Origin: Harriotta raleighana
Lineage: Eukaryota
Direction of reading: 5' to 3'
Length of the DNA: 64,000 nucleotides
Assembly (NCBI GenBank): GCA_050575255.1
Contig: JBNZDD010013567.1
Coordinates: 1,503,163-1,567,162, forward strand
Made by a program: the position numbers and the translations under genes. The notes beneath the pieces are model-generated. The model did no database searches. It saw only the letters and a list, made by a program, of their open reading frames with translations, and was not told the DNA's origin. Numbering within the stretch: the first letter of the stretch is position 1; every line of letters begins with the position of its first letter. Shown piece after piece: positions 3,091 through 55,824 of this stretch.

Positions 3091-4221
3091 CACAAAATGT
3101 TTGAATGATCTACCTTTTGGCATTGGGAAGATTATCCCAGGAAAATGTACATCCAGTTACAGAGCCAAGCAGAACACAGTGACATGTTGAATTGCATCTC
3201 CCCCCCCCGTCCCGTCCCCGTCCGTCCCCCCCGTCCCCCAACAACTTGGTCTAAAAGCTATGACAGTCAGGTCAAAATAATATTTTGATGCACCATAGCA
3301 ACTAAAACCATTTAAAATCTTGAGTGCATGAACTGCCCACATCTGTAAATCTATAAATTTTATTCTAGAGGGTTTTGTGTCACTATTTATTTTCTCCAGC
3401 GTTTTGGGCACAAAAATACACAGTCACTCCACTTTACAGTCTATTCTGTGAAGCGCTTTGATACATCTCAATGACATGATATTAAATGCAAGGGTTATTA
3501 TTATTATTATTCTAATGTCAAAGATTCATGTGAGTCTAATTTTTGTACCACATTTGGAGATGTATCGCAGCTTGGGACATCCTCCCGATATGAAAGGTGC
3601 TCTACCAATGTAATTTTGTGATCGTTGTTAATGTATACTCACGCAACATATGCATGGAAACTCCGTGCTTTTGTGTACTGTGACCTCGGATGACAAATGA
3701 TCCATATTAACTTTTCATAGTCTTCATGTCTCAAAACCAATTTGTCCTATTTCATAGGGATACATAATGACAATACGCCTGGTTTACAAATAGCACAGAC
3801 TTTGCAATGCACCTGAAGTGATTTTGCCTGATGTGACTCACGTAAAATGTCACTCTAGATGCAGGCATGTGTTATGTTATTCGAGGATTATAATTCTAAA
3901 TACAGTATGTTGGGTTTCGCTCATTGCNGGATGACAAATGATTCATATTAACTTTTCATAGTCTTCATGTCTCAAAACCAATTTGTCCTATTTCATAGGG
4001 ATACATAATGACAATACGCCTGGTTTACAAATAGCACAGACTTTGCAATGCACCTGAAGTGATTTTGCCTGATGTGACTCACGTAAAATGTCACTCTAGA
4101 TGCAGGCATGTGTTATGTTATTCGAGGATTATAATTCTAAATACAGTATGTTGGGTTTCGCTCATTGCTCTGGAATACTCATGTGAACTGTCTACGAGAT
4201 GGTATTTCTGACTTTACGCAT

Positions 4222-4945: not shown

Positions 4946-7900
4946 AAGCAACAACAAAATTACATTTATTATAATGCCTTTCACATCGGGAAAACATCCC
5001 AAGGCGCTGGGACTTTCATTCCACATCAAAATGGTTTCAAAATTTGAAACAGAAAACACATTGAGCAGTTCAGAAATCCCGATAATGTTTCTTGGCTACA
5101 ACTCATCGTTCAGCCTGAGAGGTTTTATTACTTCAGAAATTTGTTCATTGCTGATTGCGTTATGTTACGATTGTCTTAAAAACAGGCAATTCACTTTACA
5201 GTATATTCTGCAGAATGCTTTGAGACGTCTCGAAGACATGATAAGGCACCATATGAAATACAAGGACTATCATTATCTTCTCTACTACAGCTTTCACTAC
5301 AGTCTTCTCTATGTCTTTGAAGTCCAGTTTAAAGCTTGTTTCAGTTTCCTGAGATTGGCCAACACGCAAGCAAATCAAACCAAGTGTAGATAACTATAAA
5401 CACCAATCGAAACAAACTAATGCAATTTCAAATTTTGAAACAACTAGGATGAAGAACAAATGTAGCAGATTCATAAAAAGCAGTGGCTGTACCAAACCAT
5501 CTGTACCAGAAGCACTAATCATAATTTATGAGGTTGACCCCCAAAGGTCCCTTCCCCTATGTGTCACTGTGCTTATTGTAATGCAGATGCTTCAGCATTC
5601 AACCTGTGAAAAATCCTAAACGCCATACTGAATTAGAGGTATCTCAGCCACAGCACATTCCAGTTCAACTCCTTTGCACCTGTCAGTAAGAGCACATTAA
5701 AAGGACTATTGAATCACATTGTAATCTACTAAACGGATCTTCCAAGCGTAAGTATGCATCAACTCCTGATGTTTATTGAGACTCCTGCATCCTAGGTGAA
5801 GGAGACTACCTACCTAAGAAATATCTCATATTTTTGGTCTTACCATTATATAATAATAATAATCCTTAGATTTATATAGTGCTTTCCACATCTTATCGAC
5901 GTCCCAAAGCGCTTTACAGAGTATGACAACGTCCCAAAGTAGGGACCAGAGTGGGGGAGGGAGGAGGGGTCGGGGTAGGGAGAAAAAAGAGGGAAGAAAG
6001 AGGGGAAAAGGGTAGCGGGCAGAGCGGGGGGGAGGGGTTGTGGTAGTGGGAAGGAGTAGGAAAATTGACTGTATATTTGTGGGCGAAACGCGGCAGCCAA
6101 ATTGCGCACAGCAGTGTCCCACAAATATTCATGGAAGTGAGCAGGTCAGGGATGAAAAGGGGAAAGAGGGTAAGGGGAGGGGTCGGGGTAGGGGGAAGAG
6201 AGCAGGAAAACCAGGTGTATATTTGGGGGCGAAATTACATTACACTGAAATCAAACGATTTGTAGGTTCCATGGTCAATGATGCCCATCAGAGCAACTTC
6301 CTGCTTGTTAGTACGTAAGTGGGAAATTGGAATGATTTAAAGCCAATTCTAGCGCTATTTATATATTCTTGTAGTTATGTCCATTCAAGTGGCCATCTAT
6401 TATCAGCTGTGCTGTAGCTCAGGAAAAGGCCTGCCATATATTTACTTTCATCAACGCTCATGGGCTGAGGTGATGTCCTTTACTGACTGGACGCCCGAAG
6501 AATTAATGTGAAAACCACAAGAATGTAGAGATAGCACCTACATTACTTTCAACTCAAACTGCCAGACAGAACTAGCGCAGTTGAAAAATTGTAACATCAA
6601 ATTTCTATCCAGAGTCGAGTGCAATATGTGTTTGAGGACGCGAAGATTGGATTCAATAGAGATATTATTGCCTCCCCAATAGCTAAGATAAAGACAGAAA
6701 TAGTCCTTCCGGCTGTTGAGATGAATTAACGTTCACTGAGCTGAACAGACAAAATCAAATTGCAATACCAATTTAGGGGGCTGAGTTGGAAGGAAGGATA
6801 GTGGAAGGAATGGCCAAAAGAGATTGAAAAAAGTTTTAAAAAACTCACAGTGTACATGTAGAAATAGACTCAGCAGAAATGAGCTTGCGAGGAACAGTTG
6901 CTGACAGATGGAAACTTGCTTAGTGTGTGTGTTTGCCTTATTGGAAAGTTTTGAGAGCAGTAACATTCTGGACAATACAAAGCTGTGCCAGAATGAATCG
7001 ACAAATGTTGCATCAGTTTGTGAAACATAAGACCATAAGAAATGCTAGGCAATAAAGACCAAAGGCCATCTAGTTCATCTTCCACTTTCCTGGCAGTTGC
7101 CAGCACAAATTTCCCATAACAGTTCATTCTTTTCATTGCATCATCAAGTAATGACTGTAAACAGCTTTCGAGCAAAGCTTTCTTTGCATTGTCCTGCCTG
7201 CCAGTGAATTTTAAGCTTTCCAATAAGCCAAACACATTAAACAAACTCCATCTGTCAAGAAACTATCCGAGCTGCTCCTCACAATCTGTCTCATTCGTTC
7301 TGTGACTATTTCAGGATGTACACTCCGAGTTTTTGCTTTGATGCATTTCAAAAGGAATTCAAAATTTCAAAAAAAACATGAATTAACGTTGGGTGATTGC
7401 GTGCAGATAAGATCCCAGCACCCACCCCCACAATTTTTTCTAATTGCTTTTGAAAATGCAATTTTAAACAGAACTAAAGGATGTCTCTTTGTTGAGTTAT
7501 TAGATCGTTTCATCTTCATTTATTGAAGCAAAAGCACTCTTAAAAGCACACAGTCTCTTACAAAGTACTTAACACTGAACAAATTGAAGTTCAAAGCTAT
7601 TGATAGGCAGACATATTGCTCAACATAACTAAGAAAAAAATTAATAATAATCCTTGCATTTCATATAGCTCCTTCCACATCAGGAGGAAATCTCATAGCG
7701 TTTCACATGATTTAAAGTAAAATGTAATGACTGTGAATTTTGCATTTAAACCTACATAGTTTCGTCCGTAGATATTATTATACATATTTGATCATACGGT
7801 ATTTGAATATTCTTGACTGTGGAATATCAGATTTATAATTGTTAGATTAAAGCAATTCATGTAAAGCCACCCCATGCACATTACTTTGTAATAAACCATC

Positions 7901-12227: not shown

Positions 12228-12363
12228 TCAACACACAGTGATGTGATCTGTTCTCCCCGATGCGCTAACTTGAATGTGTTTCGTTACTGGAGCTATCAGT
12301 GGGGCTCCTCCTACTTTGTGATCCGCACCCACTGCTTCTCCAACACTGGAAAATCCCTGTTCC
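12228..12363 (-). CDS. DHODH: DHODH exon 9 coding part, with a C-terminal extension as assembled
   Basis: TTTGAAG|[16 protein letters not shown] followed by 28 extra aa to TGA; candidate polyA signal on minus at 11911-11916. Confidence 0.88.
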
Positions 12364-15300
12364 CTTCAAACAAAAAAAACAGTGCATTTAGCGCCAGGCG
12401 TTCAATTAATAATATGAGATTCTGACAACAGAAATCGGAGCAAAAATTCGACCCTCCTCCCTCCACCACCCACTTATTCTGTCACAAAATTCTGTCACGG
12501 GTATTGAGAAAAAGGAACAATTCCAACGATAAGCAAACACAAGACATCTGACTGAACCTAATGTCGTTTACTTGAATCGCCCAGCCTTGCTCAACAATTG
12601 TCTTGCAGTGACAAGATGAGATACCTAACCTGGTATCTAAAGGTTAGGTTAAAGCCACCTCTCCCCCCTCCATGAGGGAGAAAGGGAAGGAGTTTGAAAG
12701 CACAGTTGAAAAGATAGGCAATTAAGACAGGTTTTAAAGGCAGGGAGGAGATAGAGAGTGAGCAGGAGAGACACAGGTGAGTTTGAAGCTTAGTCAAGGC
12801 AGAAAGAACTACAGGCTTCTCTTTCAGCCTCTCTGCTCCCACATTCTGGAACTCCATCCCACAGTCCCTTCGCCTCGCTCATGACAAAGCGTGGGAGGGC
12901 TCCAGTCCAACAAGCAAATCTCTACCGACTGTTAAGAGGACGCTCACTAACCCTCCTTTTCCTAAATGGAACCGAACACCTGGATTGGTAGCTGACAGAC
13001 TCCGCCACTCACTTTAGAAGCTGCTCCAGCTCCCGCTTGATTTTGTTCACCACGGGGGGCCCCTGGTAGGTGAGGGCCGTGTAGAACTGGATTAACGTGG
13101 CTCCAGCTCGGATCTTCTCGAGAGCATCTGCTCCACTGCCAATCCCGCCCACTCCAACAATAGGAATCCTCCCTGGAGAGGGGAACACAACAGCCTCTTA
13201 CTCGATTACACGATTACAGGCAGAAGATGAGATGTCACAAATCTACATTCCATCAGTACAACTGAGCAGGTTGGGGGAGAGGGTTTCCAAAAAAAATAAT
13301 CACATGAAATATTCAACTTCACACAGTTATGGATAAGAGTGCATTCACTCAAATAGCTGCACCTAGCAGTATAAATTCAGCACAAAGCTATCTGCGTTGG
13401 TTAGATTTTCTAACCCACGGAGATCAATCACGGCATTCTATTTCTGTGGTTGTGGATTCCTGTAGCTCAGTGGTTAGAGCACTCGCCTTACGAGTGTTCG
13501 AATCCAGGCAGATCAGGGTGAAACCTTGGGCATGTTTCCTTACTCCACGCATCTAATAATAATTAGATACAGTCACTCCACTTTACAGTATATTCTGTGA
13601 AGCGATTTGAGACATCTAGATGTGAAAAGCACTATATCAAAATGCAAGGATTATTATTATTGTGAATGGCTCCTCGAATATCCCAAGACAGCACGCTTCA
13701 AGTTTAGATTTCTTTTGTATTCATAATAATCAATAAATATGATGATTGTATTTGATGTAGCACCCTTTCATGTCGTCGAGACTTCTCAAACAACTTCACA
13801 GGACATACTGTAAAATGGAGTGACTGTGTGTTTGGGAGAGGCGTTAAAATAATAATAATCCTTGCATTTCACATCTTCTAGACAGCTCAAAGCGCTTCAC
13901 AGAATATACTGTAAAAGTGAATTGACAGTATGTTTGTGGGTGAAATGCGGCAGCCAATTGTGCACAGTAGGGTCCCACAAACAGTTGTGGATTGAAATGA
14001 CCAATTTATTATAGGTTTCGTTTGGAGGTGTTAGTTTTATTATCATTAAAAGTTAGTTTGCAAACTGTTTAAAATCCACAGTTGCTGCTGGTTTTAACCC
14101 ACAGCGACATTCTCTGCTAATCCCACCGTCTCTGCTAATCGTTTGCAAGTTTGCATGTAGCTGCAGGAAATACCTTTGGTGAGGAGGTACATCTCTCGTA
14201 CAGCCTGTGTAGACATCTCCCTCAGGGGAGCTCCGCTCAACCCACCCAACTCAGTCCGCAGCGGGTCCTGGAGTGACGCTGGCCGGCTGATTGTAGTGTT
14301 TGTTACAATAAGTCCATCTACTCCCAGCTGCAAACAGCAAAAAAAAAAAGACGTCAGCTGGACACCAGATCATAGCTGAAGAGCTTCCCACGGTCACCTC
14401 CTCCCTCTCTCTGGTGAGGCATCAAGCTCTGCAGGCTCTGGCCTGCTCCATGTCCGCCAACCCACCCGCCCCACCATTGGCGGGCGAGCCTTTAGCCACT
14501 CTACCCCCCCAACCTCTGAATCTCCATCCCACAGTCTCTCTGCCTCAACCCTTCCCTGGCCTCCTTCAAGTCTCCCCTCAAAACTCTCCTCTTCGATGGA
14601 CCCATCGGCAACCCCTAACCCGCCACTTCCCTCCCCACCATGTCCTCAGCTCAGGTCTGAAGCAGTGACGTGAAAGGCACTATACAAGTATAATTTTGCT
14701 GTTGTTGTTGTTTAGCTCTCCGAGACTCTACCCTGTGTGAAGGTCGCTAAACAGATAGATGTAAATTGCTGATGACATCGTCAACAAGGTACATTTGAGG
14801 TTATTCTTGACATCAAGAGTTCCTCACCTCAGTCACAACCACAGCAATGTCCTCTTTATCCTGAGCTGTCAGATCTGGAGCAATTTTTACAAGCACAGCT
14901 GGTTTCTGATCTTCTTTCAGATTATCTCGTTCCCTCAGCACCTGGAGAACAATATAATAATAATAATCCTTGCGTTCGGTCCAGCGCTTTTCATGTCTTC
15001 TAGACGTCTCAAAGCGCTTCACAGAATATACCGTAAAGTGAATCGACTGTACATTTGTGGGCAGAATGCGGCAGCCAATTGCACACAGCAGTGTCCCACA
15101 AACAGTCATGGATTGAAATGACCAATTTCATTGTGTTTTTTTGGAGAGATTATTATTAGGCGTGTAGAGAAAGGAAACTTGCCCAAGGTTTCGCCCTGAC
15201 CTGCCTGGATTCGAACACAGGCCTCACGCTCGTAAGGCGAGTGCTCTAACCACTGAGCTACAGGATGTTTCAAAGAGCAGGCAAGACAAACGATGGGACG

Positions 15301-18300
15301 AATGGCCTCCTTGTGTACTGCAGGATTCTATAATTCACGCCGGCTGAATCAAGAATGAAACAAAAGACAATAACTAACCTTGCCTAGCAAGTAGCGCAGT
15401 TCCTCCTTCCCCTGAAGAGTTCTCAAGCCTGGAGTGTTGGGGCTGGAGACATTCACCACCAGGTAATCAGCCAGTGGTCCCAGCCTCCTCATTCCCTCTA
15501 CATAGTCAGCGGCAGCGTCTGCTGATAGCTTGTTCTTCCCGAGATTTATTCCCAAGGGTCTTCCATCTTTCGAAATAAAAACTTTTTTTTAAAACCTAAT
15601 TCTAAATGCACAGTATCTCCATAGATACATTCACTGCTTCACTTTTGTTGTTGTTGTTGTTGTTGTTGAGAATGCATAACTGGACTATATGACCCAATTG
15701 GTCTATTTTACAGCCAGCCGAAGCGTTTGTTTACAAGAAGCAGAAACACAATTCATTTAAAAGGTTTCAAGTATCAGTCAACTCTGAGCTGAAAGGACAA
15801 GACATAATAATAATAATCCTTGCCTTTGATATAGTATCTTATCATACCTTTGAGACAACAGCAACAACTTGCATTTATATCGCACCTTTTACATGCGGCA
15901 GCAGAGACATCTCAAAGATCTTCACGGAATATACAGTAAAGTGAATTAACTGCATATTTGCAAGGCGAAATATCTTATGACCTGTAACCAGGAGTTAATG
16001 GAATTTGAAGGGATGTCCTGTAAAGAGTGGACTAACATACTACTGTTAGTGATAGTAAAATCAACAAAGTGTAAAACAAAACTGCCTGGCAGTAAAAACA
16101 TGTCACCTAATGGAGTACATTAATGTGCAATTCCTTTTTAAAAAAAAATAGAGGAATGTCTTTCAGCAGCTGCATTTCAAAGTAGGTCATGCACAAACTG
16201 CGTCGATCACACGAGTGGCTGAGACAGACAGTGATCACAGACTGCCCCATCTCACATTCGCATCGCATCAGATCCACTTTCACATCGTTCTTTGGTGTTG
16301 GAAGAACGTGGAGCCTTCTTTGTGAAAGCAAACAAAACAATCGCAGCTTCGCTCTTTCATTCAATCTTCAGTTGTTCCAATTTTGAATGCAATCGTAAAA
16401 CTCAATTCATTTTCATTGCCTGTGTTTTTGGATTCCCATCTTAAAAGCCTCCCCCACTTTCCCGTCTCCTCCCAGCTCCCCATAAATTCAGGAAACCCAC
16501 TGCAAGCAGGTTGGTACTGTACCACAAAACAATAGAAATTTACAGCGCAGAAGATCATTCAGCCCATCGTGCTTGTGCTTTAGATATTTATCTACAACAG
16601 TAACTTGTAGTGACTTTCACTCAGAGTAGCTTCTCAGAACACTTAACAATGCTTCCTTTTAGAAAAAATGTGGTTTCTGCCTCAACCCTCAAGGGTAATC
16701 CACACCCTAACTACTCTGTACTAAGAAAATAGTTCTCCTGATCTCCCCATTTGCTCACAGCCTTTATTTGTGGCCCACTAGTTCACTGACAAATGTTCAA
16801 TGCCACCTTCAGGAATGTTGCCGTCTTTCCACAGGACATCGGATGTCCGCAGACAAGCATGTTAACATCACACGAATGGGTCCAATTGAAGGAGAATGAC
16901 TCCAATTCATTGACGGATGGCAAAAGACCAAACCACTCCACCTTAATCCGGGTGTAATGTTTCTGTAACAAGTAACCAGATGCCTGGATACTCTTTCCAC
17001 TATGTGTGTGCTCATAAATAAAGGTTCAGTTCTGTCACAAATAGTTACAAAAGGTCGCAACACAGCAACACAAGTGACTCATCTTAATGCTGGCATTATC
17101 TGACATTAAATGAGAGGCAAGAGGGCTAATGGGCTTAAAGTTAAGAGTTCAGCCTGCCCTCCCTTAGGCAAGGCGGTGGCAACTAAACGTGGCTTTGTTT
17201 CAAACTGTTCAACACTAAAATAACTTGTATCAAAAGACAGTCCAGTGTTATCTGAACAAAAGACGCCTTTTGCTGGCTGCACCTTTAGCAAAAATGTAAT
17301 TCTACCTTTGCAATCATACATCAGGGTGTTTGTTGTGGGACACAGCGCAACACTGGGTCACAGCTGGATGAGTCGAGCAATTGTTACAAAAGTACCTGAA
17401 TGTGAACAGACATTTCCAAATGGATCTTCCATTCAGCCTGCATGCAGTTATAATAATAATAATCCTTGCATTTGATAGAGCACCTAATCACATTGTCGAG
17501 AAGTCTCAAAGCGCTTCACAGAATATACTGTGAAGTGAATAGACTGTAGGTTCTCTTGTAGTTTGAAGACACAAGAAAGAGCGCGCGTTAAAAGCATTTC
17601 TGTTACGAGGGGATGAAAGTGACGCTGGAAATTGTGGGTACCAATGTAGTTTGGGAGCAACTACTTACGCAAACCACCAAGCTCACAATGCTGGGGAAAA
17701 AAAAGCCTTCAATGTTACCCTGAGGTACAAGCTGGCAACGACCCCATCTTATTTCAGAATCCCGGTAATACAGAACTCCTGAATACTAGTGCCATCATGT
17801 GGCAAAACGAAATGCGCAGAATTCACAGTGCTCAGAAAATACTGAGCTCTCAGCCGGCCCCAGCATCGCAGTGTTCGACATGCTGACGCTGCAACAATCA
17901 GCTGCACTTATACAACTCCTTTCCAGAGAGGAGGACATCTTAAAACGCTTGACAAATGTAGTGGTGCTAATTGGCCAGACTGCAAGCTGAGAGAATGTTA
18001 ACCAAAGCAACAGTTGAAGAGTTGAACAGTCGAATGTCTCAAAGCTCCACGTAGGATATATGTAAAGTAAATTGACTGGATTTGGGGAGGTTTCTCGAAG
18101 GCAGCAACAGACATAGCCGCCTCCCAACCCCCACCCCCACACAAACACACTCCCGGAATCAATCAAATTAATTCATTGTAAATCAATGTTCAGTTTCCTG
18201 AGTAAAGACCGTGATAAATCGATAATAATAATCCTTGCATTTGATATAGTGCTTTTCACGTCTTCTAGCACTTCACAGAATATGCTGTAAAGTTAATTGA

Positions 18301-21300
18301 CTGTATATTTGTGGGCGAAACGAGGCAGCCAATTGCGTACAGCAGTGTCCCACAAACAGTCTTGGATTCAAATGACCAATTTATTATTTTTTTGGAGGGA
18401 TTATTATCAGGCTTGTGTAGTAAGGAAATTTCCCCAAGGTTTCGCCCTGCCTGGAATTGAACCCAGGTCTCTCGCTTGTAAGGCGAGTGCTCTAACCACT
18501 GAGCTACAGGACCCCACAAAATGTCTTGTTTTGAGAAGTCATGACTGACACATCACATTTGTTTACGGACTGACTGCGGGGTTCAAATGAACTTACTGAG
18601 ACTGTTTGCTTTTGCTCCCGATGGTGTGTTCAGTCCGTTTTGCCCGGTCATTGGGTTTTGAAACTGAAAATCGTTACAACAGCAGCAACAACTTCCATTT
18701 ATACAGGGTCCCACATGCAGGGCGGGGTCTCAGAACTGCCCGATGTAACCCCGGCCTCTCTCAGTCTCACCTTTTGTTAGCTTCTGCTGTGTTTCCCACC
18801 GTCCTTCAAGTCGTTGCTGTACAGCTAAATGCCCGTGACTGTTAAAGCCGTACCTGGTTCGAAAGCAAACACAAGTTGCTTTGGGTTTTTGGGGGATTCA
18901 TAAGGACATTGCGGTGAGAGACATTGAACTCTGGCAACCGGCTGCTCAAACCAATGGAGCGGAAACTCCAGAACCAAGTTACTCGGGGACACTCGTCGAA
19001 GCCTATGATTCTCATGTATTTTAGAATCTGTTCGGCGCCTTGGGACGTGCTCCCGACGTCCCAATAAATTACACACGTAATTCTGTTGTTGCATTATGTA
19101 ACAAAACCAATTGAACAAAAATACTCGCACGGAGAAAACTAACCAGAACTTTTGTTCCTATTGTGCTAGAGATATTTATTATCTTGTATCCCCAAGGTGC
19201 TAACCATTAAAAACCATCTAGTAAATCAAGTAAATCAATTGTAACCACAGATCGCAGAAAAGCACAGCGATTCCGCCGTACCTGTTAATGATAGCCTGAT
19301 CTGACTGCAGCCTGAAAACCCTGGGCTTGGGGTTTCCTTCCTGAGGTTGGGGTGTGACGCTTCCTACCTCTACAAATCCGAACCCCATCTTGTAAAGCCC
19401 ATCGATCGCCTCGCCGTGTTTGTCGAAGCCAGCTGCAATCCCAACAGGGTTCTTGAACTTTTGACCAAACACTTTTACCGCCTGAAATTGGTGGAAAGCT
19501 GTTAAAAAAAATTTTTTTCCCTCCCACACAATATCAGGAAGGTCAAAACTCCACCTGTATTTCAACATGGAACACGTGTGTGTTTGTGTGTGTGTGTGTG
19601 TAAAATGCAACAACCCACAGCAGATAATAATAATAATCCTCCCATTTGATATAGCGCTTTTCACATCTTATCGAAGTCCCAAAGCGCTTCACAGAATATA
19701 CTGTAAAGTGACCTGACTGTATATTTGTGGGCGAAAGATCTTACCGGGTGGAAAAATAGCTACACTTAAAGAGATGGAATTTCATCCTGGATCCTTAATG
19801 TTACGTGGCACTCCAGTGATGATACGGGACAAAACCGAGCAAAGAATTTGAAAGTGATACAGCAGTGAAGAAGAAGAATAATACTACTGTTATACAATGA
19901 CTAGGAGGAGAGCATCACAACCACAAGATCAGGAGAGAGCTTCCATTCCTTCTGAACTACTTCTTGCACAATATCCACCCTGTCAGCATTCCCATCACAA
20001 CCTTGAGATGTCCCAAAATAATAAATAGGAATCCTTGCGTTCGTTTCATATAGTGCCTTGTCGTGATGTCGAGATGTCTCAAAGTGCTTCACCCAGTACG
20101 CTGTAAAATGTGAATCGACCTCATGTTTGAATCACATGGTTCGCCCACAAATATACAGTCAATTTTTCTTACTCCTTTCCCTGAGCCACCACCCCACTTG
20201 GCTGTACAGCGCTTTGGGACGTCCTCCCGACGTGAAAGGCGCTATATAATTTTTTTCTAAAATTTTGATTGAAGTGTCAATGTCCTGGCCTCTACTTCTT
20301 ATTCGCTTCCAAATTGTAATGAATCACTTTCAGGGCCCCACCATTCATGACCTTGCCCCCTGCTACATCTGCTGACCCCCTATCAACCTGTCCACTGCCT
20401 CCTATCTGAATGTTATGTTCGACTTTAACTTTCTCAATCCCATTTCACAGTTGAAAACCTGTAATAATAATAATAGTAATAATCCTTGCATTTGATATAG
20501 CGCTTTGCACGTCTTCTAGACTTCTCAAAGTGCTTCACAGAATATACTGTAAAATGAAATGACTGTATATTTTGTGGGCAAAACGTGGCAGACTGTTCAC
20601 ATCCACCCAGTTGACATCTGGAAAGGATGCAGCCACTTGTTAGATGAGCTCAATCATGCGCCTACCAGGATGGGGGAATCCTTGTGTCTCGATCGTGGGA
20701 TTAATCCCCGTGAAATAAACCACACAGAGAGCTTGTGGGCCGTTTCCGGGTCCACAAACCTCTGCAAGGTGGGCATCAGGTGTCGGGCGTAAAACTTCTC
20801 ATCCCCTGCAGCGATGCAGTAAGCTAAACACAGGAGAGAGCCACCCCCTAGCACTCGAGCAGCCTCTGCCAGGCGTTTCTGGGGAAGAAAGAAAGACATT
20901 AGAAGAGGTTGCATTACCCATGGAAGCATTATTACAGGTGGTGGGGGTGGGGAGGGTCGGGAATGAACTGATGGCGATCACATAAAACATGCAGTGGGAA
21001 TGTGGAACGGGTTTGTGGATAAGTACAAGCAAAACAAAGAGGAACTACTGTAAAATTAATCTGCGAGCTGGACAAACCTGTATCACTTACTGAATGCACC
21101 GCAGAACTCTGGCCTGAACCAAAGTTGTTGCAACATGTTAGCATTCCCAGTTAGTCCCAACAAAGACATATATTAGACGCTGCTGAAACAACAGTATTGG
21201 CTGATCTTTGGAGGAACCTTTGTGAAGCCAAAGAAACACTGCCTTCGGGACAGGCGATTGTAACAATTTATAATTAACCCCTTACACATCAAGAGGATAA

Positions 21301-22330
21301 TAACTGCAATAATATTATAATAATAATCCTTGAGTTTGATATAGCACTTTGCACATATAACAATATATAATAATAACATATCACATAGGATATCACAAAG
21401 CTGGCTTCACAGTGAGGACCTTGGTTAAACCCCTACTTGGGCTTGTTGTTTCTCTGCCATTTCAGTTCAGGAGTTATAGCGAGCTGTGTAATTCAACAAC
21501 AACATAACATTTGTATAGCACCTTTCACGTCAGGAGGATGTCCCAAGGCGTTGGACAGTTCTTGTTTCAGACCCGAGCTGGAGACGGGGACGGTGGAGGG
21601 AAAGGGGGGGTGGGATTTGGGATGACAGATGAGACCGTCGAACAGGAGGGTCTTGAGGCTGAACTTGAAGGAGGGCAGGGAGGGGGGGCGAGGAGGAGGG
21701 ACTACGCGCGATCACAGCTGAAACAAGCGATTTGATCAAGTGAATCAAATCGCATCAGAAGAGAGTTTGCGGGGAAACACTGCAGCGACTCGGAGACAGT
21801 GCCATTGTGGCTATGAGTGTAATTGGTGGCAATATTACTGTGAGGGCGGTTGGGTTTCTTTTAGATCACGTTAGGTCATGTTTGAGGACCTAAAAGTCAA
21901 ATCACTGTGTGTGCTTAACAAATAACTCTTAGGGTAGTTGGTTACAGCGTTGCTGTGTGTAGCTGGTTACAGTGTTGTTTGTGGGATGCTTCTGTGCGCA
22001 ATAGACTGCCGCGTTTCGCCCACAAATGTGCAGTCGATTCACTTTACAGTATATTCTGTGAAGCGCTTTGAGACGTCTAAAAGACGTGAAAAGTGCTATA
22101 TCAAATGCAAGGATTATTATTATTATTGTTGTGTGCAGTTGGTTAGTGTTACTGTGTGTAGTTAGTGTTGTGCAGTTAGTGTTGCTGTGTGTAGTTGGTT
22201 AGTGTTGCTGTGTAGTTAGTTAGTGTTGTGTGTAGTTAGTTAGTGTTGTGTGCAGTTAGTTACACTGTTACTGTGTATAGTTGGTTACAGTGTTGCACAT
22301 CTCCCTCACCTTGAAGCCCTGGTTGAGCAT
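12228..22330 (-). CDS. DHODH: Dihydroorotate dehydrogenase (quinone), mitochondrial; 9 coding exons, about 422 aa
   Basis: Exons 22310-22330, 20666-20878, 19282-19481, 18771-18853, 15379-15566, 14828-14941, 14174-14327, 13013-13172, 12228-12363. All introns are GT-AG, phases are consistent, total 1269 nt. Class-2 DHODH motifs: [46 protein letters not shown]. Confidence 0.97.
13013..13172 (-). CDS. DHODH: DHODH exon 8
   Basis: CTCTCCAG|[39 protein letters not shown]...ELEQLL|GTGAGT; 160 nt. Confidence 0.95.
13458..13660 (+). mobile_element. Deu-domain SINE with internal deletion
   Basis: tRNA head and L2 tail present; core missing. Confidence 0.75.
14174..14327 (-). CDS. DHODH: DHODH exon 7
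   Basis: TTTGCAG|[12 protein letters not shown]...GGLSGAPLR...LTK|GTATTT; 154 nt. Confidence 0.96.
14828..14941 (-). CDS. DHODH: DHODH exon 6
   Basis: TCTCCAG|VLRERD...[10 protein letters not shown]...VVTE|GTGAGG; 114 nt. Confidence 0.96.
14955..15265 (-). mobile_element. Full-length Deu-domain SINE abutting the DHODH exon 6 acceptor
   Basis: Complete head, core and tail; tail ends about 13 nt from the exon. Confidence 0.88.
15379..15566 (-). CDS. DHODH: DHODH exon 5 (catalytic NVSSPNT loop)
   Basis: [12 protein letters not shown]...[11 protein letters not shown]...LLGK|GTTAGT; 188 nt. Confidence 0.97.
18222..18512 (-). mobile_element. Deu-domain SINE
   Basis: Near full length. Confidence 0.85.
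18771..18853 (-). CDS. DHODH: DHODH exon 4
   Basis: AACCAG|[27 protein letters not shown]|GTGAGA; 83 nt. Confidence 0.95.
19282..19481 (-). CDS. DHODH: DHODH exon 3
   Basis: TTTCAG|[24 protein letters not shown]...QAIINR|GTACGG; 200 nt. Confidence 0.97.
20666..20878 (-). CDS. DHODH: DHODH exon 2 (transmembrane anchor and quinone tunnel helices)
   Basis: TTCCCCAG|[13 protein letters not shown]...DPETAH...DSPIL|GTAGG; 213 nt. Confidence 0.95.
22310..22330 (-). CDS. DHODH: DHODH exon 1 coding part (MLNQGFK)
   Basis: ATGCTCAACCAGGGCTTCAAG|GTGAGG; 21 nt, phase 0, same size as the recalled human MAWRHLK exon; joins KRLAEA in frame. Confidence 0.7.
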
Positions 22331-22339
22331 TTCCACAAT

Positions 22340-22618
22340 CACAGACAGAGTCACAGACACAGACACACAGACTGTCACAGACACAGTTACAGCCACAGAC
22401 ACACAGCCACAGAAACACAGACTATCACAGACACACAGTTACAGCCACAGACACACAGACACACAGACTGTCACAGACACACAGCCACAGACACACAGTT
22501 ACAGCCACAGACACACAGACTGTCACAGACACACAGCCACAGACATACAGTTACAGCCACAGACACACAGCCACAGCTCCTCAGACACAACTACAGACAC
22601 AGACACACAGCCACAGTC
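22340..22618. repeat. Compound CA-rich minisatellite (ACAGCCACAGACACAC-like)
   Basis: Visible tandem units immediately 5' of the DHODH ATG. Confidence 0.9.
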
Positions 22619-23221
22619 TCTTCCTCCCTGTAACCCCCTCTCTGCAGTTTCCTGCTGCTCTCTATAAACTGCTAGTTACGGTGAGTCGCAGAGTCCAGAA
22701 GCTCAGTCTGTAGGAGGGACTGGCTTCATATTACAAGCTTTGATGCAAGTCTCTCGCCTCCACTGATTTAGTCAGAATATTCCCCAGAGAGAGAGAGAGA
22801 GATAATACTGTTAACATCACCCCTTACTCCTATTAAATTTCACCCCCACCTCCCCTCCACACACACACACACCCACATACACACAACTCCCTACACACAT
22901 ACAAAGAAGCACACATCCCCCCCCACACACACACACACCAATAAAGCAGTGTCACAAATGGGGGCTGGTAATACTCTGGTAAAACTCAAGCACGATGGGT
23001 TACAATTGTGGCCTCAAAGATTGCTGTGAAAAGTTATCCAGTAATGGATAGTTAATACTGTAACCGGCATCCTGCAGCTCAGTGGGTTAGAACCACTCGC
23101 CTTACAAACGCGAAAGAGACCCCTGGGTTTGCCCCCGTCCGCGGAAGTATTTTTGTTCAATTGGTTCTGTTACCGAACAACAACAAAATGACATGTGTAG
23201 AGCGCCTTTCATGCAAACCGT

Positions 23222-24005
23222 TTCTAAAATGGGAATCATAGGCTTCGCCGAGTGTCCCCGAGTAACTTGGTTCTGGAGTTTCCGCTCCATTGGTTTGAGC
23301 AGCCGGTTGCCAGAGTTCAATGTCTCTCACTGCAATGTTCTTATGAATTCCTCCCCCAAAAAAACCCAAAGCAACTTGTGTTTGCTTTCGAACCAGGTAC
23401 GGCTTTAACAGTCACGGGCATTTAGCTGTACAGCAACGACTTGAAGGGCGGTGGGAAAAGCAGCAGCAGCTAACAAAAGGTGAGACTGAGAGGGTTACAT
23501 CGGGCAGTTCTGAGACCCTGCCCTGCATGTGGGAACCTGTATAAATGGAAGTTGTTGCTGCTGTTGTAACGATTTTCAGTTTCAAAACCCAGTGACCGGG
23601 CAAAATGGACTGAATACACCATCGGGAGCAAAAGCAAACAGTCTCAGTAAGTTCATTTGAACCCCGCAGTCAGTCCGTAAACAAATGTGATGTGTCAGTC
23701 ATGACGTCTCAAAACAAGACATTTTGTGGGGTCCTGTAGCTCAGTAGTTAGAGCACTCGCCTTACATGAGAGAGACCTGGGTTCAATTCCACGCAGGGCG
23801 AAACCTTGGGCACATTTCCTTATTCCACATGCTTGATAATAATCCCTCAAAAAAAAATGAACTGATCATTTTAATGCACAACTGTTTGTGGGACACTGCT
23901 GTGCACAATTGGCTGCCATGTTTCACCCACAAATACAGTTAATTCACTTTACAGTGTATTCGGTGAAGCGCTTCGAGACGTCTAGAAGACGTGAAAAACA
24001 CTAAA
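23222..24005 (+). repeat. Inverted segmental duplication of about 18230-19026
   Basis: Near-identical reverse complement over the unique part (23222-23730 vs 18510-19026); identity is lower within the terminal SINE. Confidence 0.92.
23397..23479 (+). pseudogene. Inverted duplicate of DHODH exon 4
   Basis: AACCAG|GTACGGCTTTAAC...CTAACAAAAG|GTGAGA; 4 substitutions against 18771-18853; frame and splice sites intact; no partner exons found on the plus strand. Confidence 0.9.
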
Positions 24006-24025
24006 TAAATGTAATTTTGTTGTTA
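23733..24025 (+). mobile_element. Deu-domain SINE
   Basis: Full head, core and tail. Confidence 0.85.
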
Positions 24026-36294: not shown

Positions 36295-36587
36295 AATAAT
36301 AATTATCCTTGCTTTTGATGTAGCGCTTTTCAGATCTTATCAAAGAATATACTGTAAAGTGAATTGACTATATTTGTGGGAAAAACGCGGCAGCCAATTG
36401 CACCCAGCATATCCCACAAACAGTCATGGATTGAAATGACCAGTTTTTATTATTGTTTTTTTTGGAGGGATTATTATTAGGCATGTGGAGTAAGGAAACT
36501 TGCCCAAGGTTTTGCCCTGACCTGCCTGGATTCGAACACAGGTCTCACACTTCTAAGGCGAGTGCTCTAACCACTGAGCTACAGGAC
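36295..36587 (-). mobile_element. Deu-domain SINE
   Basis: Head, core and tail; 18-bp head duplication at 36569-36609. Confidence 0.85.
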
Positions 36588-38724
36588 TCACAACCACTGA
36601 GCTACAGGATTTCTACTGTGATCTCGACAAAAAAAATCACATTTGTAAATCCAGCAAAACTTAGTTTACTCAGAACTTTTTACTTATGCAGCATAAATGT
36701 AATTTTGTTGTTGCTGTTGACCCCCCATAACTAGGCAATAAAGAAATTCTGATTTGAATCTGAAGTCTACTCTCATTTATCCACCAAGCATTCAGCATTG
36801 TTTGACCTTGAATCATGTAGGCGTTTCTCTTCTTGCAGTAGTAAAATTCTACTCAAAAGAATCAATAAAACCTGTGTGTTCAAAGTTATCCCCCTTTGGC
36901 TCCGATTCAAAATGGTTCCACAGTAATTCAAATATTGCACCACTCTCATCAGAAGATCTTTCATATTGCGGCTCCTATTACAAGGCTGCGTCTCAAGTGT
37001 AACAAGTGAGGTGCAGAGATTTCCCAGTGGCGAAATGTATACTGTTGACATGTCTGCTGCTTCAAGCAGTTTGTTTGTTAACTCCCCAGATCAATAAATC
37101 TGCAAAAGAAAATGAGTTCATAATCTACATTAACATGCTGGTGTAGTTCTGGGGTGCACAACATTGTTGGAGGTTTAGCCAAAATCTTGGCAACAGTTGA
37201 AATGGGTGTAAGAGATCCGATCCTTCTCGAAAAGTGCGGGTTTGTCCAAATGTTCTGGTCAGCAATCTGCCAGATTTTTTTAAATGGTCATTCAAGGCTA
37301 ATTATAGGAATTTCGACATGCAAAATGGTTACCACATTCAACGACAAAATACACAGTAACTGCATCTCACAATTTTGATGACTGATGAAGAGATATATCA
37401 AATGTAAGGATTATTGTAATATCTGATAATAAACCTGCAGAAGCACATTATTTTTAATTTGTAATTTATATTTACAGGCATCAAGTCATTCCAAATATTG
37501 ATTGTCTGCATTGGTTGGTCTGGATGTTGTTACTGAGCGGATGTAATGCATAACTGATGAGAAATCAGTCTTGTATCTTAATATCCATGAGGTCATTCAT
37601 AATGGAGTATCAAAAATACCAATCAATGGACAAGAAGATTACTGGAAACAGATTACTGTCTATGATTAACACAATTTATCCTGTTATAATTATATTTAAA
37701 TGTTGGAGGGAACTGGAATCAGAGGAGGCAGCATAGGATTCGAGCAAGCTGGACTGGGTACACACAGAGCTGACGACTGACAAATGAAGTTCTACACAAT
37801 TAAAAGGAAGATACCTCACATAGAATAGGAGGCACATGTACTGGTCACAAGATAGGACTTGTTGGAAGGGAGCTGGCCTTGTTAAGTGACTCACCACCAT
37901 AAAACAGTGTGAGGCCGCAATAAACAGACAAATGGCACGTGCGACTGCAATGCCAAATCGATTGAGTGCAGCTGCATGGAAGTCATAGTCGTTAAGAATT
38001 CATCATATCTTTGAACAATCTCAAAATGCTTCCAGGATATATTGTAAAGTGGGTTTGATGTCAATTGTGCACATCAGTGTCTCATACACAGTTATGGATG
38101 CAGTGAGCAAACTTGAGTGAACTATATTGTGTTTGGGTCATGTCTTACCTAGAGTACTGAGGTGCTAAATAATCGTTCACAGTCTCAACAGTGTGAAAAA
38201 ACATATCAAATGCAAGGATTATTACTCTATAAGATCCTTGTAACTATGACATAAGCAGTCTCTCCTGGGCCTGCAATACAGAGTACAGCAATGAGGATGT
38301 CTCATTGTTAAGAGCAATCGTTGGTCAACTTAAGGCTCTTCAGTCTCGTAAGAAGACCATTCAGACACATGTAAGATTATAAATGGGATTGAGAATGTGA
38401 ATACATTTAGATTCACCAGAAAAGCAGAGCAAAAGGACCCCGGTTTAGGATTGCTAAGGGCAATTTTAGGGCAAATACTAATAAATAAATTGATGTGTTT
38501 TGTTACCCAATAAATAATTAATGACTGGAATGGGTTGAGAGATTGGGTGCTTGAAGCAAGAACACATTTCTTTTTTAAAAAAAAGCTGTAATAGGAATAC
38601 ACTAGGGTAGGTGTTCTGAAAGCTGAGATCAAATGTGCCAAAAAACCTTCCTCATCCTGATCTCAAATATTGGTAACCCGTGCACTTGACATAGCACGTT
38701 TCCTGTCAGGATGATATCTCAAAA

Positions 38725-39160: not shown

Positions 39161-41204
39161 GACTTACTGAAACTTCTGTGTTATTTGTTGGCGATCATGG
39201 CAAATGATCTTATAAATAGTCTAATCTGCCTTCATTCTTATGCTGTAAATTAGGTCAACCCCCCACCTCCACCAATGGAATTTCTTCAAATGCCTTGGGA
39301 GAAAAATCTTATTATCCAAATATTCTGACATAAGGCACACAGTAATAAGCTAGGAGTTGAAGGAAATGGGTCTACACGGAGATGGGTGTAGATGTGAACA
39401 TATATATCTATATATATATATATATATAAATTCAAGATATTAATAAATGTCAAATGTTAGTATAACTGGGATATAGATGACATTTTAATATGTATGGTTA
39501 AAGTTGCAAGTGCCTTAGGATAGTGTATTATTATTATTAATAATTTAAGGTTGTTACACAACACATATTCCCATGACCTTAACTTGTGACTACAGTATTT
39601 GTAAGCACTCCAGGGAATTCCTCTTTCTTTCCCCACACAGAATTGGCACTTATGACACTATCAGATTCCAGGTTGCACATCGAAATAAATCTATTTACAA
39701 ACGACATTGGCTGATAAAAAAAACCTGCTACTCACCTTCAGCTCGAGAGAATGGGCAGTACACAAATTTGTAGGTCACCCTGTTATTTGTTGATTATTAT
39801 TATTACTATAATTATTGATTATTCCCTATCAAGGTGACATTGTTTCACCCACAAATACAGTCAATTCACTTTACAGTATATTCTGTGAAGTGCTTTGAGA
39901 CGTCTAGAAGACGTGAAAAGCATTTTTAGCAAATGCAAGGATTGTATGGTTCACCTTGTTCTGTTCGGAAATCGCAAGGCTTGAAACAGATCCAGGCATC
40001 TCTGGAAGTCATGTCAATTACTGTACTCAAGCGAGAAAATGTTTTTTTTCAAATCGTAATATAAAATCAAACACATAATGTATATATTTTTTTTAAAAAC
40101 ACAAAATTCATGTTTTGATAGCAGACACTGTCAAGATTTTTCCTGATGGCCTTGGGTATTGTGAGGGTTAATGCGCAATTGTAATGCGAGGAACTTGACC
40201 GAGTTTTTTTTCCTAATAAAAAATAAATGAACCGGATGAATTATGCAGATACCAACAGGGAACCCGTTCCCAGCAGCTATTATGTATGATCTTGCTGACT
40301 CAACAGCAGCCTCCATTAACTAGAGCAAATAAAATGCAGCTGGAGGATGGAAGGGAATAAGGTTTCGATTTTACCCCAATAAATAAATAAACAAACAAAA
40401 GACCTTTAACAGGTTGGTGGGGGGGGGGGGGGAGGAGGAATAATGCATCCAACAGCGACTCAANTAAACAAACAAAAGACCTTTAACAGGTTGGTGGGGG
40501 GGGGGGGGAGGAGGAATAATGCATCCAACAGCGACTCAAACAAATGAACCCTTTATATAATAAGAATTATTATTATTAATGATTATTATGTAAATTCCTA
40601 TTTCGTGCAGAAGATAGATGGATGGGGGGGTGGGAGGGGAGGTGGATTAGGTGTGACTGTCAATTTATACCCAGTGACAAAGAGAGAATTGGGGAAGGGA
40701 AGAGAGACAGAGAAGAAATGCGTCTTCAGGTGGACTGGGATAATATGTTCATGTTGAGTTGCAGCCCAGCCAACGTTGCTTTGCGTCACTCACGCAGTTG
40801 AGAGCAATTGAAGTCTATTGATAGAGCAGCAACAGTGGGGGGGGCTGGAGCTGGAGAGGAGGAGGCTTTACTGCAGGGATGTGAATGAACTCTCCCCCCC
40901 CCCCCCACCTACCTCTCTCCAGTGTCAATCTCTCCAGCTGCTGTTGGAACCCAGAGGTCTACAAAGGCTGGAAAGTCCTCTGTCACATGTTTTAATCACA
41001 TCACTGGGTGAGGGAGATGACATACACATACACACATACACAGTGAGTGAGTGAGAGTGTGTGGGTGTTTGGGGGAGAAGGAAAGGGCTTCTTCCAATCA
41101 ATCACACAGCAAAAAAGCTTTGCCCGGAAGGAAGTTCTCATCTAGGGGAGGAAGAAGACGAGAGAGAAAGAGGAAGAAAGACAGACTGTGTGACAGAAAG
41201 AGAT

Positions 41205-41545
41205 AGAGATAGAGAGAGAACAGACTGGGTGAGAGATAGAGAGAGAACAGACTGGGTGAGAGATAGAGAGAGAACAGACTGGGTGAGAGATAGAGAGAGA
41301 ACAGACTGGGTGAGAGATAGGGAGAGAACAGACTGGGTGAGAGATAGAGAGAGAACAGACTGGGTGAGAGATAGGGAGAGAACAGACTGGGTGAGAGATA
41401 GAGAGAGAACAGACTGGGTGAGAGATAGAGAGAGAACAGACTGGGTGAGAGATAGAGAGAGAACAGACTGGGTGAGAGATAGGGAGAGAACAGACTGGGT
41501 GAGAGATAGAGAGAGAACAGACTGGGTGAGAGATAGGGAGAGATA
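41205..41545. repeat. 27-bp minisatellite (GAGAGAACAGACTGGGTGAGAGATAGA), about 12 copies
   Basis: Near-perfect tandem array upstream of SLC10A3. Confidence 0.95.
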
Positions 41546-42587
41546 GATTGTGTAAGAGAAAGAGAGTCAAGACTGTGGTGGGAGATAGAGACGGACAGAG
41601 ACCAGACTGTGGGAGAGATAGAGAGAGGCAGACTATGTAATAGAAAGAGAGGCAAGCCTGTGTGAGAGACTGTGTGAGAGACAGAGAGAGACAGACTGTG
41701 TGAGAGACAGAGAGAGAAACAGACTGTGTGAGAGACAGACTGTGTGTGTGTGTGAGAGAGAGAGAGAAATGGACACACTGCGAGAGAGAGAAGGGAGAGC
41801 CTGAGAGGGAGAGAGACGAGACTGTGCGGGAGAGACAGACTGTGCGGGAGAGACAGACTGTGCGGGAGAGAAGAGGAGGAGAGACTGAGCTGGAAGAGAG
41901 CGAGAAAGAGTGGAACTAGCAGATGAGCCAGTTACAGACGAAGAGAAACATGGTCGATGTGGAGGTGGTGGGGGGCTGTGGACTACCTGAGATGGTCTGT
42001 AACCCAGCAGATACACAGGGACGCCGCAATCTCTACAGTTCAGTGCAACAAGTTGTGCTGGGAGCTGTGTGAGGCTGAAATCAGGTCCCTCCAGCCAGGG
42101 TACAGAGGCTTGGAATACCCTTTTTCTATCAAGTTTATTTCTCTCCTTCCCCCCCACCCCCCCTGTGTGTGTGGATGAGAGAGAGATAGATTGAGATTGT
42201 GTGTGTGTGTAGAAGGGAAGGAAACCCAATCCAGCTGCAAGCAAAGCAATGAGGGTTGTGTGATTTTTTTTTTNTTTCCCCCACACCCCTCCCTTTCCCT
42301 CCTTCCCCCCCACCCCCCCTGTGTGTGTGGATGAGAGAGAGATAGATTGAGATTGTGTGTGTGTGTAGAAGGGAAGGAAACCCAATCCAGCTGCAAGCAA
42401 AGCAATGAGGGTTGTGTGATTTTTTTTTTGTCTGCGTCTGCATTTGTGTGTGTGTGTGTGCATTTGTGTGTGTGTGTGTCTGTAATTGTGTCTGTCTGTC
42501 TCTGTGTGTGTTCTCTGGTTGGCAANTTGTGTGTGTGAGTGTCTGTAATTGTGTCTGTCTGTCTCTGTGTGTGTTCTCTGGTTGGCA

Positions 42588-44036
42588 ATGCCTGACTTGC
42601 CTCAGTGGATGGGCAAGGCCAACAACATGCGGAAGGCGCTGGTGTTCTGGGGGTTGATCAGTGGCGTCTGCTGCGTTTTGGACTCTTCCACCACCTCCTC
42701 CTCCTCCACCCCCTCTTCATCCAACAACAACAGCAGCAGCAGCATCCCCGACCTGACCCGTTACTACATTAACATCGGAGACGGTTCTTCCGAGGAATTC
42801 AATTTCCCCGAAAACACCCGGGGGATCATCGTAATCTCGAGCCGTTACGGGATAGGCGAGAGGGAGCGGGGGAGGGGCTCCACCTGTAAGCTGACAGTGG
42901 AGTCACTGGATCCCGATGTGCTCCAGGTACTGAACATCAGCAAGGCCCAGACTGTCGGGTTGGAGAAGAGTTACATCGTCAGCATAAAGTCTGGCATGGC
43001 TGGCTCTGCGGCTCTCCTGATCAGGCTTCTGGCAACTACCGGCGCGCAGCCCGCTGTGGTGGAGGAACGCAGCGATTACACCATCAAAGTGTCGCCCAAC
43101 GACGAGGCCATTGGCTACGCCGCCCTGGCCCATTTCTCCCAAAACCCTGTGCTCTACGCCCTCCTGCCTTTGATCTTCATCAACAAATGTGCTTTCGGGT
43201 GCAAAGTGGAGGTTGGGGTGCTGCGAGGGCTTCTCAAACAGCCGCACCCAGTCATCCTCGGCATGATCGGCCAGTTTGTCCTGATGCCTCTGTACGGCTA
43301 CGCCTTATCGCAGATGTTCGCGCTGCCCAAGGCCCTGTCGCTCGGGCTGATCATTACTTGCTCCACCCCGGGGGGAGGCGGGGGTTACCTCTACAGCCTC
43401 CTCCTCGGAGGGGATGTGACCCTCGCCATCTCCATGACCTTGCTTTCGACAGTGGTGGCCACTGGCATGATGCCTCTCTCATCCAGTCTGTACAGCCACA
43501 TTCTCAACGTCCACGAAACCCTGCACGTGCCCTTCTCTAAGATCCTGATCACGTTGCTGTTCATTGCCATCCCCATTTCCACAGGAATGTTCATCAAGTA
43601 CAAGTTCCCCAAGCTCAGCAAGATCTTGCTGCTGCTCATCCGACCGCTCAGTTTCATACTGATCGTTGGAGGACTCTTCATGGCTTACCAGATGGGAGCG
43701 GACATACTATCCAACGTTCGGAAAGAAATCATTCTGGCCGGGATCGCTGTCCCCGTGTTCGGATTGCTCATTGGATATCTCATGGCGTACTGCTTGAGTT
43801 TACCCGTTCCTCTGTGCAAAACTGTCAGCATCGAGATCGGAGTTCAAAATAGTCTGCTGGCACTTGCTGTGCTCCAGTTGTCCTTCCGCCGTTTCGAAGC
43901 AGACTTTGCCTCACAAGCCCCTTTCATAGTGGCTCTCAGCTCGACATCAGAGATGCTGATTCTCGTGGTCGTTTATCTCATCTACAAAAAATTCAGGCCC
44001 AGCCCTGACTCTGAGAATGGCGACTTCAAGCCGTAA
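42588..44036 (+). CDS. SLC10A3: Sodium/bile acid cotransporter family member P3 protein, single coding exon
   Basis: Matches recalled SLC10A3 motifs: IGDGSSEEFNFPE..GIIVISSRY, AHFSQNP.LY.LLPLIF.NKC.FGCKVE, GLIITCS.PGGGG.YL, TVSIE.GVQNSLLALA, QAPFIVALS.TSEM. Alternative in-frame ATGs at 42609 and 42627. Confidence 0.93.
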   Translation: MPDLPQWMGKANNMRKALVFWGLISGVCCVLDSSTTSSSSTPSSSNNNSSSSIPDLTRYYINIGDGSSEEFNFPENTRGIIVISSRYGIGERERGRGSTCKLTVESLDPDVLQVLNISKAQTVGLEKSYIVSIKSGMAGSAALLIRLLATTGAQPAVVEERSDYTIKVSPNDEAIGYAALAHFSQNPVLYALLPLIFINKCAFGCKVEVGVLRGLLKQPHPVILGMIGQFVLMPLYGYALSQMFALPKALSLGLIITCSTPGGGGGYLYSLLLGGDVTLAISMTLLSTVVATGMMPLSSSLYSHILNVHETLHVPFSKILITLLFIAIPISTGMFIKYKFPKLSKILLLLIRPLSFILIVGGLFMAYQMGADILSNVRKEIILAGIAVPVFGLLIGYLMAYCLSLPVPLCKTVSIEIGVQNSLLALAVLQLSFRRFEADFASQAPFIVALSSTSEMLILVVVYLIYKKFRPSPDSENGDFKP

Positions 44037-54982: not shown

Positions 54983-55824
54983 TGTGACGGCTGACCAGGA
55001 TTAAATGTTGATCCACACCCTGTAAAGAGAGTTAAACAGACACAGATATTACAAGTTGTTTCAAAGCTGCTTTGCTCACTATCCCAACTAATATTTGGTC
55101 AGTTTTTGGTAAATATTGGCGAGTGATTTAAAAACAAAAGGTTACATTGCAAAGCTCTCTTCTCTCAGTTTAATTACCATGCTGTACATCATGTTTTTAA
55201 AAGATTTATTCTTGATCACGAAATGTGCCTTGACGTACACAGAAGCTCACCTGCTTAAGACTTTGCAAATCCAACTGAGAACTCCAGTTAAATTGCTTTT
55301 CAACACAATAGCAATAGGAGCAAGCCTATTAAATTATATTCTCCTCGACATAAATTAAATGAAACAGCCAAACTGATGGAATGGAAGTGGAGGAATTACA
55401 AATTTATGCAGTATTAGTACCGTAATACCTAAATCTCAATTATCACAGGCACTACGAGACTCGTGTTTTTATTCAATTTAAGTTATTTTAAAATGGACTG
55501 AAATTTTTTTGTATTGATCTTCAATTTCAAGAATTTGGGCTCAAACTCAATTCAAATCCGAGAGGTTGTAGGTCTTTCCGTGGCCAGAATTAATGACCTT
55601 ACATGAAGTCAATTTTTCCTACTCCTTTCCCTGAGCCCTCCCCCACTACTTGACTGTACAGCGCCTTGGGACGTCTTTCCAATCCAATTGTTAGTACAGT
55701 ATACCAAGAAGCTTTATTTATCACTGTAGTTTCCACTTGTTGATACTGTTGCCAGTTTTCATATCATTATGCCGGAGGATTTGACATATAGCTGGAATAA
55801 TATTTTGTAAACTGACAGCTTTGC

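Follow-up and report, generated by a model that had tools for sequence, protein, structure and literature searches.

What is a second copy of a coding exon doing, inverted and with its splice sites intact, upstream of the very gene to which the exon belongs? This question is raised by the DHODH locus of Harriotta raleighana, contained in a window of 64,000 nucleotides (positions 1,503,163 to 1,567,162 of contig JBNZDD010013567.1, in the 1.10-Gb assembly GCA_050575255.1). DHODH is an essential gene of pyrimidine synthesis. In the window it occupies the minus strand and is closest to its counterparts in cartilaginous fishes, each exon having its best relative in protein P0007 of the chimaera C. 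milii. Among its exons on this strand are exon 2 (20666..20878, 213 nt), exon 3 (19282..19481, 200 nt) and exon 4 (18771..18853, 83 nt, bordered by AG and GT). The probable coding exon 1 (22310..22330) encodes MLNQGFK and ends at a GT donor; 5 of its 7 residues are those of C. milii P0007. Exons 5-9 were located by tblastn at approximately 12255..15576. A genome-wide protein search gave nine DHODH matches, all nine at this locus, corresponding to exons 2-9 and to the extra exon 4.

IST1, also on the minus strand, lies upstream of DHODH. Its last coding exon and presumed 3′ UTR occupy 24116..25857, with the stop at 25633. Candidate poly(A) signals are AATAAA at 24116, 24413 and 24972 and ATTAAA at 25218 and 23870; the one at 24116 is the nearest to the exon-4 copy, about 100 nt away. 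The two genes are direct neighbours on the same strand, with about 3.3 kb from the IST1 stop to the DHODH start; in human they are, we assume, separated by PKD1L3. The CpG profile of the window contains no clear CpG island that would mark the DHODH promoter.

Self-comparison of the window by BLAST gave, as its strongest non-self match, an inverted pair formed by 18235-19133 and 23138-24014, 87.0% identical over 916 columns; repeat finding in the window recovered sub-arms of the same pair at 95-96% identity. The original arm (18235..19133, minus strand) comprises the end of DHODH intron 3, exon 4 and the first part of intron 4, in which a tRNA-derived SINE is situated. The preliminary description of this DNA had reported an inverted duplication at 18230-19026 and 23222-24005. 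It is indeed there, and the true pair reaches about 100 nt further at its inner end. The arms are about 4 kb apart and, as had been proposed, bracket DHODH exons 1-3, as the exon coordinates establish; exons 5-9 lie outside the segment bounded by the repeats. The location of the copy between DHODH exon 1 and IST1 holds as well, and the IST1 poly(A) site once given as its border is now to be read as a set of candidate signals.

Searches of the animal's own genome indicate how local this pair is. Among the 36 matches scored with 18520-19030 as DNA query, the two arms are the only full-length ones, and the other 34, of 45-68 nt, all belong to one dispersed repeat remnant. With 23040-23250 as query, the segment 23138-23175 matches only the DHODH intron-3 site among the 40 matches scored of 241 candidates. 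Control DNA of 600 kb, taken from five contigs that include the window's own, yielded one more local inverted duplication of non-repeat sequence, at L053:4249-4723 and 5407-5884 (G000:C13660). Its arms, 89.6% identical over 482 columns, are separated by 684 nt, and the vicinity contains no N. Since one other example occurs in these 600 kb, local inverted duplications are probably numerous in this genome, and the one at DHODH probably just happens to take in an exon.

Before any biological meaning is given to the copy, it must be asked whether it exists in the animal. A second haplotype of the exon-4 region might have been placed inverted in the assembly. This assembly does contain duplicates at gap edges, such as the 240-nt direct copies on either side of a single N at 3928, and of 17 local duplicates in direct orientation detected in 664 kb, 13 show 97.5-100% identity. 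Furthermore, one contig assembled from short-read run X1 joins the copy-type core to DHODH's own flank. However, the assembly's own artefacts are direct, abutting, nearly identical and situated at N gaps, whereas the DHODH arms are inverted and 4 kb apart, and not one N is found between 3929 and 26346. Moreover, the edges of the arms are only 84-87% identical and show paralogue-specific deletions, whereas X1 and the window differ at only 14 of 1786 letters in the seven other pieces listed. The bin of the original exon also shows normal read depth even though copy-type sequence exists too. X1 contigs carry copy-type 23331-23749 with 1 difference in 419 nt, together with pieces of both unique flanks (22949-23120 and 24167-24386); among the pieces listed, none spans either junction of the copy itself, and the run is possibly not independent of the assembly. 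Overall, an assembly artefact appears very unlikely.

The direct duplicates deserve a remark of their own. Four of them, 136-240 nt long and 93-99.6% identical, flank single Ns in the window, at 3688-4168, 34320-34603, 35037-35338 and 42138-42429 (Ns at 3928, 34464, 35184 and 42274). They are probably scaffolding overlaps rather than true tandem repeats. The last N lies just upstream of a long single open reading frame on the plus strand, opposite to that of IST1 (42549-44036), with NTCP5_P3_N and SBF domains of the SLC10A3/P3-like bile-acid symporter family. Nearby, at 41112-41624, about 14 overlapping in-register copies of a 27-nt unit form a tandem array, open on the plus strand as RERTDWVRD repeats, which is probably a minisatellite. 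A further single open reading frame, of 402 amino acids on the minus strand (53792-55000), has a sulfotransferase domain and is presumably CHST5/6-like.

The history of the duplication may be read from the distribution of differences between its arms, which is stepped. A core of 575 nt is 97.0% identical and the edges are 83-87% identical. In the copy, all on the plus strand, the core occupies 23236..23810 (552 of 569 positions identical, 17 substitutions, 3 indels; longest identical runs of 82, 88 and 90 nt) and would correspond to a conversion tract. The diverged inner edge (23138..23235) has 79 of 94 identical positions (84.0%), 6 gaps and private changes in both arms. On the outer side, the body and tail of a SINE (23811..24014) have 165 of 193 identical positions (83-87%). 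The step is marked by Fisher tests (p=7e-10 for the core against both edges, p=5e-6 against the inner edge alone), although these values are optimistic because the boundaries were picked after viewing the data. The control pair at L053 shows a gentle slope from 97 to 88% and no step. At the inner edge, both arms contain a short stretch of unique sequence and the remnant of a small repeat tail. Comparison with 14 copies of this tail from elsewhere indicates that each arm has lost a different part of it, so that decay of the edge has not been confined to the copy. For the same reason, it may be inferred that the duplication is older than the 3% divergence of its core suggests, and that the core was converted afterwards. 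A core of 575 nt fits the size of mammalian conversion tracts, which range from a few hundred bases to 1 kb according to the part of the literature considered here (PMC3961182).

SINEs are found at both breakpoints. Intron 4 of DHODH contains a full-length tRNA-Val-like SINE (18222..18512, minus strand), which may have provided donor homology. On the other side, a truncated SINE head of the same family and orientation as the SINE of the copy (23069..23130, plus strand) abuts the inner breakpoint and could be the 5′ part of the element that received the copy. When the SINE of the copy was compared with the intron-4 SINE and with 53 unrelated near-full-length SINEs, the intron-4 element ranked first of 54 for the head but only seventh of 54 for the tail. 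Over 179 columns, the tails of the copy and of the intron-4 SINE have 4 derived states in common; 54 other pairs have 1.85 on average and 4 at most. Thus, the SINE tail of the copy is not detectably a sister of the intron-4 SINE. Because this outer tail is no closer than unrelated SINEs, and because a truncated head lies at the inner breakpoint, the copy was probably inserted into a single older SINE, homology with the intron-4 SINE guiding one of the junctions; the body and tail at 23811..24014 would then have been present at the insertion site beforehand. As an alternative, the tail may be an old duplicated one that escaped conversion, since 4 shared states equal the maximum among the other pairs. 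A search for a target-site duplication around the split SINE gave a candidate of 8/10, no better than chance (8/53 in each of two shuffled comparisons), and junction microhomology at the copy was looked for with unconvincing results. Folding of the SINE head of the copy was unremarkable (z=0.27). Identity figures for the head remnant were set aside, their maximum of 100% being probably an end-gap artefact. Four tRNA-Val/Leu genes reported by ARAGORN, at 15196-15267, 18443-18512, 23730-23801 and 36517-36588, were rejected as genes: all are SINE heads, and thus a source of false annotation in this genome.

Insertion into an older SINE followed by conversion can be cast as a sequence of events. 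Repair would have started with a break in the acceptor SINE. The broken element, led by homology, would have invaded the inverted SINE of intron 4, from which about 700 nt would have been synthesised through exon 4 into intron 3 by template switching. Non-homologous rejoining would have closed the inner junction. Later, gene conversion would have re-homogenised the core of about 575 nt. Origin and age are read here from the two arms in the same genome. On balance, it is rather likely that we are dealing with a real, SINE-anchored inverted pseudo-exon, probably inert, that carries a probable old conversion tract.

The inertness of the copy is mainly an argument about its exon. The pseudo-exon (23397..23479, plus strand) has 83 nt, and the alignment bears out that it retains AG and GT borders and an open frame with 4 substitutions relative to exon 4, as first described (WEKQQQL instead of WETQQKL). 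This integrity is no sign of selection, because in 48% of 20,000 simulations at the core's divergence of about 3%, an exon of this size kept both its splice sites and its open frame. Moreover, the copied exon has not diverged less than the remainder of the core, with 4 differences in 83 positions against 13 in 486 (p=0.29, a comparison of low power); at that power, exon and splice sites do not stand out from their flanks as a functional conserved element. A mutually exclusive alternative exon is ruled out, since the copy precedes exon 1 and has plus-strand orientation. Indeed, it cannot be spliced into DHODH, because it lies on the opposite strand and outside the coding span. Judged from these features, the exon-4 copy is likely to be without function. 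The functional exon 4 carries a derived Q>K change, the seven other cartilaginous fishes in the alignment all having Q; in the copy, K stands in place of a T that C. milii shares with the functional exon. Hence, both versions of the exon would have changed since the conversion.

RNA made from the copy might nevertheless act on DHODH. The preliminary description held that a plus-strand transcript of the copy would be antisense to exon 4. The polarity is the reverse: plus-strand RNA would be sense, 79 of 83 positions being identical, and only minus-strand RNA of the copy, produced by IST1 read-through or by a far-upstream DHODH start, would be complementary to exon 4. That a minus-strand RNA spanning both arms would form a long duplex is upheld by folding, with a predicted energy of -1097 kcal/mol against -263 for a non-complementary control. 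In such a model, minus-strand RNA of the copy would pair with the DHODH pre-mRNA over the 575 nt of complementarity around exon 4, leading to exon skipping, editing or small RNAs. Transient IST1 read-through into the copy is plausible, as general knowledge of transcription termination suggests, since the nearest candidate poly(A) signal is about 100 nt away. However, the copy is upstream of the start codon, so that a normal pre-mRNA need not include it, and no constraint is seen on it. In addition, skipping of an 83-nt exon would cause a frameshift in the sole DHODH gene, and a large skipping effect should be selected against. A precedent for skipping is offered by human CHM, where an inverted copy of exon 12 within the same pre-mRNA goes with skipping of the exon, according to the part of the report considered (PMC8756506). 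Altogether, a regulatory role of this kind is improbable. The stretch from DHODH exon 1 to the copy contains a consensus donor on the plus strand (ACG/GTGAGT at 22681). If the promoter also gave a divergent transcript, this could be spliced from the donor to the acceptor at 23397, and the result would be a non-coding RNA sense to exon 4.

Could the arms act on the DNA rather than on the RNA? The geometry is as first proposed: by crossing over between the arms, exons 1-3 would be turned round to face the copy. The proposal that inversion would make a knock-out or a switch has to be divided. The inverted state would be a null allele and not a switch, because no exons 5-9 follow the copy and because this is the only DHODH in the genome; read-through past the copied exon after inversion would meet a stop at codon 49. 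Geometry permitting, and with an X1 junction equal to that of an inverted allele, the arms could still be imagined as an invertible on/off device for exons 1-3. But the flipped state would have no coding exons downstream to be joined to, the longest perfect run of the arms is 90 nt, which is short for efficient homologous recombination, and neither a recombinase nor a crossover site dedicated to such a purpose is known to us for a vertebrate locus of this type. Although many human inversions between inverted repeats arise recurrently, as stated in the portion of the source consulted (PMC3961182), an invertible switch at DHODH seems extremely improbable. The arm pair, a weak substrate, is rather predicted to allow exon 4 to be converted occasionally and, rarely, to produce inverted null alleles, which selection would eliminate.

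A less drastic exchange would be conversion that still segregates, the functional exon 4 of some individuals having been overwritten by the copy, so that WEKQQQL is donated to a working DHODH. This idea arises from the X1 contig already mentioned (record 1, 606 nt), in which DHODH intron 3 (19100 to 18914, minus strand, 2 differences) continues into copy-type 23331-23749, so that exon 4 and the adjoining part of intron 4 are of copy type while intron 3 is that of the gene. In X16, moreover, depth on the bin of the original exon is 0.25 for a background of 2.25. However, the switch point in the contig coincides with 23249-23330, 82 nt over which the arms do not differ. This exceeds the length of a typical assembly word, and of the sampled words only 42% are present in X1; a chimera of the assembly graph is an easy explanation. 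For these two reasons a chimera accounts for the contig just as well, and conversion, inversion and graph chimera fit it equally well. When X16-X18, which come from one sample, are summed, the depth of the original bin is normal (3.89 against a background of 4.19, taken from 9 of 30 bins hand-picked as free of high-copy repeats). The depth of 16.28 in the copy bin coincides with a dispersed repeat remnant (23507-23570), which would inflate it. As this remnant is mostly outside the bin of the original, the roughly 4-fold excess of the copy bin (16.28 against 4.19) was rejected as a test of copy number. The tables of difference, joint and loose-end reads, dominated by SINE reads, contained nothing specific to the locus. 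Segregating conversion is therefore unlikely on the evidence of the contig and the depths. As for a broader proposal, in which the pseudo-exon overwrites exon 4 in living populations, with WETQQKL and WEKQQQL segregating, and IST1 read-through antisense also couples IST1 termination to exon-4 splicing, we give it very little credence.

What the locus is worth depends on which of these readings is correct. If the copy is inert, the import is small: a compact natural case, next to a housekeeping gene, of an inverted duplication that is anchored in SINEs and probably contains a conversion tract. It would also be a reason for caution, because the two copies of exon 4 may be confused when this fish is genotyped at DHODH or assembled from short reads. 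If conversion were polymorphic, the locus would offer a small testable model of exchange from pseudogene to gene. If IST1 read-through altered exon-4 splicing, it would offer a testable model of the coupling of neighbouring genes through double-stranded RNA. In a search from which most subscription journals were absent, no publication was found on an inverted duplication of DHODH exon 4 or on DHODH of chimaeras or Callorhinchus.

The layout itself is already known from human disease genes, and the DHODH locus is a further instance of it. In the pairs IDS-IDSP1 and SBDS-SBDSP1, as far as the portion of the source used describes them, part of the gene has an inverted paralogue outside its borders, with an identity of about 97% in the case of SBDS; the two can undergo conversion, or an inversion that breaks the gene (PMC4057820). 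The DHODH arms resemble these pairs in being inverted in cis, one inside the gene and one outside, with high identity and probable conversion. They differ in their size of about 0.9 kb (575-nt core), in their spacing of 4 kb and in their content of one exon, and the one hint of a converted or inverted allele at DHODH is the hybrid X1 contig, for which a graph collapse would account equally well. In F8, the almost identical copies int1h-1 and int1h-2 are about 126 kb apart, and a crossover between them detaches the 5′ exons to give a null allele, according to the part of the report consulted (PMC7507428). DHODH likewise has one repeat inside the gene and one outside, and its inversion would give a null; unlike those of F8, its arms lie next to each other, contain an exon and have a core of 97% identity. 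In CHM, a single exon with its flanks has been duplicated locally in inverted orientation; this duplication, of exon 12, has been attributed to replication template switching (FoSTeS/MMBIR) in the sections considered of the corresponding study (PMC8756506). In this DHODH is similar; but, unlike the CHM copy, that of DHODH is upstream of the ATG, and pairing would need read-through or a far-upstream start. Finally, sex-chromosome palindromes, as far as the accounts consulted describe them, have inverted arms of more than 10 kb kept more than 99% alike by conversion, whereas at DHODH conversion looks episodic and partial.
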